From NCBI RefSeq assembly GCF_056712565.1, contig NZ_CM160072.1: 64,000 nucleotides of DNA; one strand, given 5' to 3'. Positions 15,024-15,578 of the stretch are shown piece after piece. Every line of letters begins with the position of its first letter. Within the stretch, counting starts at the first letter, position 1. The position numbers and the translations under genes were made by a program. The notes under the pieces were generated by a model. It had not been told where the DNA came from and did no database searches. It saw only the letters and a program-made list of their open reading frames with translations.

Positions 15024-15578
15024 ATGGATCACTACCTTGAGATCCGCGTTCTGCCAGATCCTGAATTTTCGAGCGAAATGTTGATGGCGGCGTTATTTGC
15101 AAAACTGCATCGGGTATTAGGTGCAAGAGGGCAAGGCGATATCGGCGTGAGTTTCCCTGACGTAAATGTTATGCCTGGAGCGCGTTTACGCTTGCATGGT
15201 AGCGCCCAGGCATTGCAGGCGCTTGAAGCCTCAACGTGGCGTAAAGGACTAACGGACTATTGCCAATGTTCACCTGTCACTCCCGTTCCAGAAATAAAAG
15301 GCTGGCGAGTAGTAAGCCGCGTGCAGGTTAAAAGTAACCCTCAGCGTCTGTTAAGGCGTTCAGTGAAAAAAGGCTGGCTAACTGAAGAATAGGCAATTGA
15401 ACGACTGGCGACGCAGGCTGAACAGCGGACTGATTTACCTTTTCTCAATATGAAGAGTTTGTCGAGTCAGCAACTGTTCAAGTTGTTTATCCGTCATGGT
15501 GATTTGCTCAAAGAACCGGTTAAAGGGGAATTTAGTAGTTATGGATTAAGCGCAACCGCCACTATTCCCTGGTTTTGA
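15024..15578 (+). pseudogene. cas6f: type I-F Cas6f (Csy4) crRNA endoribonuclease interrupted by in-frame TAG at 15390..15392
   Basis: MDHYLEIRVLPDPEF start; track ORF stops at 15392, but the same frame continues AIERLATQAEQRTDLPF...FIRHGDL...YGLSATATIPWF to TGA 15576..15578, matching the Cas6f C-terminus. Confidence 0.8.

Follow-up and report, generated by a model that had tools for sequence, protein, structure and literature searches.

Organization of the type I-F locus

[quoted passage not shown] The cas genes are all on the plus strand. They comprise cas1f (7231-8214) and cas3f, also named cas2-3 (8211-11444), whose coordinates were transferred from the PGAP annotation of strain HS13-1, followed after a gap of 329-330 bp by csy1 (cas8f, 11774..13081), csy2 (cas5f, 13078..14001), csy3 (cas7f, 14012..15013) and cas6f (csy4, 15024-15578). 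Four genes of this six-gene set (cas1, cas2-3, csy1 and csy3) are intact, and each of the other two, csy2 and cas6f, is interrupted by an amber codon.

The operon is flanked by two I-F arrays on the plus strand, CRISPR4.1 upstream (6731..7058, 6 repeats and 5 spacers) and CRISPR4.2 downstream (16119..16507, 7 repeats and 6 spacers), both of which are built from the 28-nt I-F repeat GTTCACTGCCGTACAGGCAGCTTAGAAA and 32-nt spacers. A gene for tRNA-Ser(GGA) is located on the minus strand at 15689-15776. The terminator-like hairpin at 15597-15620, which has a stem of 10 base pairs and a T run after it, lies 19 bp past the cas6f stop codon and likely marks the end of the csy operon ahead of this convergent tRNA-Ser gene. 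Elsewhere in the window, tandem 39-nt (and 15/24-nt) repeats at 25835-26161 are in frame with ftsK and have a Pro/Gln-rich translation; these repeats are the variable linker of FtsK.

An amber codon interrupts cas6f

The cas6f frame opens with the ATG at 15024, runs through SVKKGWLTEE into a TAG at 15390-15392, continues as AIERLATQAEQRTDLPFLNMKSLSSQQLFKLFIRHGDLLKEPVKGEFSSYGLSATATIPWF and closes with the TGA at 15576-15578. Codons 1-122 (15024..15389), assigned by the TIGR02563 match and the alignment to Csy4, are still translated, while codons 124-184 together with the TGA (15393..15578) form an untranslated remnant, recognized by the same Csy4 alignment, whose encoded peptide starts with AIERLATQ and ends with ATIPWF. 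The product thus consists of 122 of 184 amino acids, the stop having removed 62 residues (34%). The initial annotation, which had described an in-frame TAG inside cas6f and a truncation at 122 aa, is therefore correct in its reading of the frame, and cas6f homology is found to either side of the stop.

With the TAG read as Gln, the protein matches TIGR02563 (cas_Csy4) end to end with an E-value of 3.2e-54 and a score of 183.7 bits, where the cutoff of the profile is 36.25 bits. The 122-aa product by itself reaches 110.4 bits and covers profile positions 1-123 of 184. The 184-aa protein also aligns to solved Csy4/Cas6f chains (9irf, E 1.9e-60) and to P. aeruginosa Csy4 (E about 1e-47), the chains being covered over their full length. 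When the 61 aa past the stop were searched alone, they matched the C-terminal ends of the same Csy4/Cas6f chains with E-values from 3e-15 to 6e-10, in register up to the last residue. The downstream stretch is therefore a true remnant of cas6f and not a chance open reading frame, in agreement with its earlier assignment to the Cas6f C-terminus.

Comparison of the frame with its homologues identifies the ancestral state. The codon at 15390-15392 is CAG (Gln123) in UTI89, LF82 and A1, and the C>T change at 15390 which converts it into TAG is the sole difference in cas6f between the window and UTI89. In a MAFFT alignment of 22 sequences, about a dozen SNPs only are present over 8 kb, and the remnant past the TAG has no further mutation in any member of the clade carrying the stop (hereafter the TAG clade). 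Such an unchanged remnant is expected in a young clone. A Dcm (CCWGG) deamination hotspot behind both amber codons of the locus was considered and rejected, as the ancestral contexts are GAACAGGCA for cas6f and TTTCAGTTC for csy2 and neither is CCWGG.

Consequence of the stop for the Cas6f protein

Past about residue 48, residue n of the E. coli protein aligns to residue n+3 of P. aeruginosa Csy4. In this alignment the last translated residue corresponds to E125 and the stop itself to E126. An uninterrupted two-domain Cas6f reading frame is not present, owing to the TAG at codon 123. The 122-aa product keeps H29, which aligns to P. aeruginosa His29, along with the basic helix R108-K116 and the linker residues R99 and Q101, the counterparts of P. 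aeruginosa R102 and Q104. Residues S145 (Ser148), F152 (Phe155) and Y173 (Tyr176) are encoded past the stop and are missing, together with the strands of the C-terminal domain. In Csy4, Arg102, Gln104 and the basic helix are reportedly RNA-contacting, Phe155 is said to stack on a base of the hairpin and Tyr176 to orient His29.

Ser148 and His29 have been proposed as the catalytic residues of Csy4 (PMC9850488). When P. aeruginosa Csy4 was split at L121/S122, the fragments were catalytically inactive unless rejoined (PMC11734699). The N fragment (1-121) of that study breaks off almost where the natural truncation does, a few residues earlier. The split protein is an engineered P. aeruginosa Csy4 in mammalian cells, whereas no C-terminal partner is made here. 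As the equivalents of Ser148, Phe155 and Tyr176 are gone and the comparable Csy4 fragment is inactive alone, the predicted loss of repeat hairpin cleavage, and with it of crRNA processing, is well supported by the alignment and by this analogy. The earlier expectation that crRNA processing is probably lost is in line with these considerations.

The csy2 amber is the older lesion

The csy2 pseudogene (13078..14001) is recognized by TIGR02565 with an E-value of 1.2e-92 and carries an amber at codon 72 (13291-13293), where the ancestral residue is Gln, encoded by CAG in LF82 and by CAA in A1. Of 237 complete E. coli genomes that have csy2, 124 contain the exact 63-mer of the amber. The carriers include UTI89, IHE3034, APEC O18, the type strain ATCC 11775 and every carrier of the cas6f TAG. 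ATCC 11775 has the csy2 amber and the spacer sets of the TAG clade together with CAG at the cas6f codon, which means that the csy2 stop preceded the cas6f stop. This order of events, like the sequence of the allele, its ancestral state and its distribution over the clade, is read directly from the genomes. The initial annotation made no mention of the csy2 amber.

The csy2 amber appears, from the sequence, to be the primary inactivating lesion of the I-F locus. According to a published proposal, the crRNA is bound at its 5' handle by Csy2 together with Csy1 (PMC3513311), and the 71-aa Csy2 fragment is predicted to be incapable of supplying this handle-binding subunit. Both interference and spacer acquisition in I-F systems require the Csy proteins and a catalytic Csy4 (PMC4678832). 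With the csy2 stop alone, the Csy effector complex should have been lost already, and interference and adaptation with it; the stop may in addition reduce downstream expression through polarity. Since the csy2 amber is older, the cas6f stop would be a second hit of little added consequence.

Distribution of the cas6f stop allele

The exact 63-mer centred on the cas6f TAG is present in 11 of 240 complete E. coli genomes with cas6f, the other 229 having a mismatch. The 11 genomes, among which are HS13-1, SF-468, MS15052, APEC E18055 and APEC 16-1068 plus six others in RefSeq, come from the USA, China, Korea, Sweden, Australia, Thailand and the UK and were obtained from humans, chickens and a dog. 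The human isolates are from blood, CSF or faeces (USA, China, Sweden, Australia, Thailand and UK), and the animal isolates are from chickens in Korea and Australia and from the dog in Korea. The exact 122-aa product was found on 318 public contigs (for example EGB49273.1 from E. coli H252). In all 11 TAG genomes, PGAP gives cas6f the status of a pseudogene and notes an 'internal stop'; the lesion, an ordinary one, is fixed in this clade and already annotated in RefSeq. No specific earlier account of csy2 or cas6f stops in ST95-type strains came out of a literature search.

The window differs from HS13-1 by 2 mismatches over about 18 kb and from UTI89 by 5, and shows 0 differences over 9 kb to four genomes of the TAG clade. 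Judged by these comparisons, the window is another member of the known TAG clade. SNPs at 9588 and 11707 split the clade into three haplotypes, which indicates that the allele has been stably inherited through some diversification.

A putative regulatory mini-array in the cas3f-csy1 gap

The gap between cas3f and csy1 contains a CreR-like regulatory mini-array on the minus strand (11448..11528), identified by its sequence and by the I-F1 class described in PMC10120712. It is composed of a first degenerate repeat (11528-11501) with a conserved 8-nt handle CTTAGAAA, a pseudo-spacer of 25 nt (11500-11476; lengths of 23-27 nt have been published for bacterial I-F elements) and a second degenerate repeat (11475-11448) with the canonical Cas6f hairpin CTGCCGTACAGGCAG. 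A promoter-like site on the same strand (11557-11529) lies directly upstream of the first repeat. The predicted target of the pseudo-spacer, also on the minus strand (11605..11631), consists of a CC PAM (11631-11630) followed by the protospacer and is located in the same gap, 130 bp off and 143-169 bp upstream of the csy1 ATG. Positions 1-5 and 7-11 of the pseudo-spacer pair with the target while positions 6 and 12 are mismatched. This is the only match in the 64 kb, and a control with shuffled spacers yielded 0.185 hits when at least 9 of 10 positions had to agree. In lineage A1, position 5 is changed from G to T in both spacer and target, and the seed stays at 10/10.

The gap element is, on these features, assigned to the known autoregulatory mini-array or CreR-type class of I-F1 systems, whose members repress the Cascade promoter (Shmakov et al. 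2023, PMC10120712). A simple scan gave no plus-strand promoter. At 11707, between the mini-array target and csy1, a C>T change is found in 4 of the 11 TAG-clade genomes and is absent from the window; it falls where the promoter or leader of csy1 is presumed to lie.

As the second repeat keeps the canonical Cas6f hairpin, maturation of the mini-array RNA should depend on Cas6f. Maturation and use of this RNA would need Cas6f and the Csy complex, two partners that are presumably lost here. The crRNA-like RNA that had been placed in the cas2-3/csy1 gap thus corresponds to a real mini-array, and its processing should fail as had been anticipated.

Arrays and spacer history

The spacer sets are identical in all 12 TAG-clade loci. 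The longer downstream array of APEC 16-1068 was considered as a case of continued acquisition and rejected, its extra unit being a duplicate of spacer 7. Across 22 csy2-amber loci, almost all spacer variation comes from ancestral spacers, several of them common to LF82, that were lost or duplicated. No clear spacer gain was seen in the arrays of csy2-amber genomes bar one spacer of EC13. This pattern is consistent with the requirement of adaptation for the Csy proteins and a catalytic Csy4 (PMC4678832). The EC13 spacer is leader-proximal in the upstream array and absent from every other sampled locus; either the other loci have lost an ancestral spacer, or EC13 acquired this one late, in a presumably adaptation-deficient lineage.

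A further change in the downstream array concerns position 21 of the first CRISPR4.2 repeat (16119-16146), where a C>T at 16139 occurs in the cas6f-TAG clade only, among the sampled loci. The base at 16139 directly follows the Cas6f cleavage site on its 3' side and opens the 5' handle. The first spacer of CRISPR4.2, next to this repeat, is 33 nt and not 32 nt long.

Further lesions in csy2-amber genomes

Other strains with the csy2 amber have been damaged at different places of the locus. EC13 has an 8-bp deletion in cas6f (equivalent to 15247-15254 of the window), N31 has a C>T stop in csy3 (equivalent to 14729), and in DE17 cas1f is truncated beside an IS66-family element (equivalent to about 7231-7740) and the upstream array is gone. 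Second hits were looked for in 8 csy2-amber genomes taken at even intervals. Six of the eight were without one, and the hits of the others were in csy3 and cas1f; no cas6f lesion was found in this sample. The idea of second hits specific to cas6f was rejected on this distribution. The spread of second hits over different cas genes fits neutral erosion of a dead operon.

Origin of the cas6f stop

In the course of events that we propose, a single C>T transition turned Gln123 (CAG) into an amber (TAG), with translation ending after 122 aa. The truncated Cas6f retains His29 along with the N-terminal domain and the basic RNA-binding helix and is without the serine of the catalytic pair, the hairpin-stacking phenylalanine and the His29-orienting tyrosine; it should neither fold correctly nor cleave repeat hairpins. 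The stop arose within the E. coli lineage of UTI89 and ATCC 11775, in one of its subclades. The I-F locus of this lineage had presumably been inactivated previously by the csy2 amber, and the cas6f stop would represent a neutral second hit in a decaying locus. We infer accordingly the loss of the RNase, of crRNA and mini-array RNA maturation, and the neutrality of the change. Taken together, the cas6f TAG is very probably a genuine, vertically inherited loss-of-function allele and a neutral second hit after the csy2 amber.

A sequencing or assembly error over a true CAG codon and an intact cas6f could be imagined, as one base only separates the TAG from the common allele. An identical 63-mer in 11 independently sequenced complete genomes, the exact truncated product on 318 contigs of several sources, and a TAG that co-segregates with another clade marker (T at 16139) and fits a coherent haplotype tree leave practically no room for this explanation, and the recurrence of the allele in these genomes and contigs makes re-sequencing unnecessary. 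Csy2 and Cas6f might instead be restored together by a Gln-inserting amber suppressor of the supE type (glnV/glnX): csy2 codon 72 and cas6f codon 123 are both ancestral Gln codons that went from CAG to the amber TAG, and the rest of the two genes is free of further damage. However, undamaged remainders are expected in a young clone with about a dozen SNPs per 8 kb among 22 sequences, the arrays are without clear spacer gain, and other members of the lineage have added lesions which are not amber (frameshift, IS insertion). The Gln tRNA cluster of MS15052, a member of the TAG clade, has the wild-type anticodons CTG, CTG, TTG and TTG, and no tRNA with a CUA anticodon was found in this cluster or in the window, where tRNA-Ser(GGA) is the only tRNA in 64 kb. 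Among transitions, CAG to TAG is the most frequent source of stop codons, and by our own reasoning two ambers are therefore unremarkable. We consider suppression very improbable. A residual or new function of the 122-aa protein, such as hairpin binding without cleavage, could draw on R99, Q101 and the basic helix, which are kept and align to RNA-contacting residues of Csy4. Against it, the basic helix is part of the C-terminal domain, the remainder of which is absent, the near-identical engineered Csy4 fragment is inactive alone (PMC11734699), and the MAFFT alignment gives no sign of adaptive change past the stop, such that this function deserves next to no credence.

Selection in place of neutrality is a somewhat less remote alternative, and still an unlikely one. 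Here, loss of csy2 would have ended autorepression by the mini-array, the free Cas6f RNase of the derepressed operon would have been costly, and knock-outs of cas6f would have been favoured. The conserved mini-array with its covarying target upstream of csy1, in a class that represses the Cascade promoter (PMC10120712), and the constitutive expression of the csy operon in LF82 (PMC3506596, Almendros et al. 2012) are in keeping with such a scenario, as is the presence of two independent lesions (Q123* and the 8-bp deletion of EC13) in cas6f, the smallest cas gene, with only about 7% of the cas coding length. However, both of these lesions came from cas6f-based searches, a biased mode of discovery, and an excess of cas6f hits is therefore not demonstrated. 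The even sample of 8 csy2-amber genomes, with 0 cas6f lesions and 6 genomes without any second hit, speaks against such selection, and cas6f is intact in most of the 124 csy2-amber genomes. The csy2 amber may also lower downstream expression by polarity. A neutral second hit thus remains our preferred reading of the cas6f stop.

Implications

The window strain and the TAG clade should be scored as being without functional type I-F immunity despite a near-complete operon and two arrays. Gene-presence surveys of "I-F positive" E. coli would overcount, as roughly half of the complete genomes with the genes (124/237) have the csy2 amber and a subset of these has further hits. The arrays, being stable, can still serve as typing markers. 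Within the lineage, csy2-null and csy2/cas6f-double-null backgrounds occur naturally beside intact relatives such as LF82, and autoregulation by the mini-array could be tested in them. The cas6f stop itself has little significance beyond correct annotation.

Comparison with known systems

The closest counterparts of the window are the strains in which PGAP has annotated cas6f as a pseudogene. They have the same TAG at codon 123, the same csy2 amber and the same spacer sets, and no difference to the window was noted.

At the level of the protein, Csy4 of P. aeruginosa PA14 (PDB 2XLI, 2XLK, 4AL5 and others) shows full-length homology to the Cas6f of the window. His29, the equivalents of R102 and Q104, the basic helix and a 28-nt I-F repeat with a 5-bp stem are common to both. 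Unlike PA14 Csy4, the product encoded in the window is without equivalents of Ser148, Phe155 and Tyr176.

The gap element resembles the I-F1 mini-arrays described earlier (PMC10120712; Liu et al. 10.1101/2023.03.10.532045) in its two degenerate repeats and 25-nt pseudo-spacer. It is further alike in its transcription opposite to cas3, its CC PAM, the seed mismatches at positions 6 and 12 and the position of its target upstream of csy1. In contrast to the published mini-arrays, its partners Csy2 and Cas6f are both broken in the window strain, and its role in autorepression is putative.

The I-F system of LF82, which is intact and constitutively active (PMC3506596), occupies the same site (clpA ... 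serW ... infA) and has the same gene order, the same length of the cas3f-csy1 gap and an identical mini-array, and spacers 5-11 are common to LF82 and the window. Unlike the window, LF82 reads CAG at codon 72 of csy2 as well as at codon 123 of cas6f. Its arrays are also much longer, the downstream one having 9 additional leader-proximal spacers.
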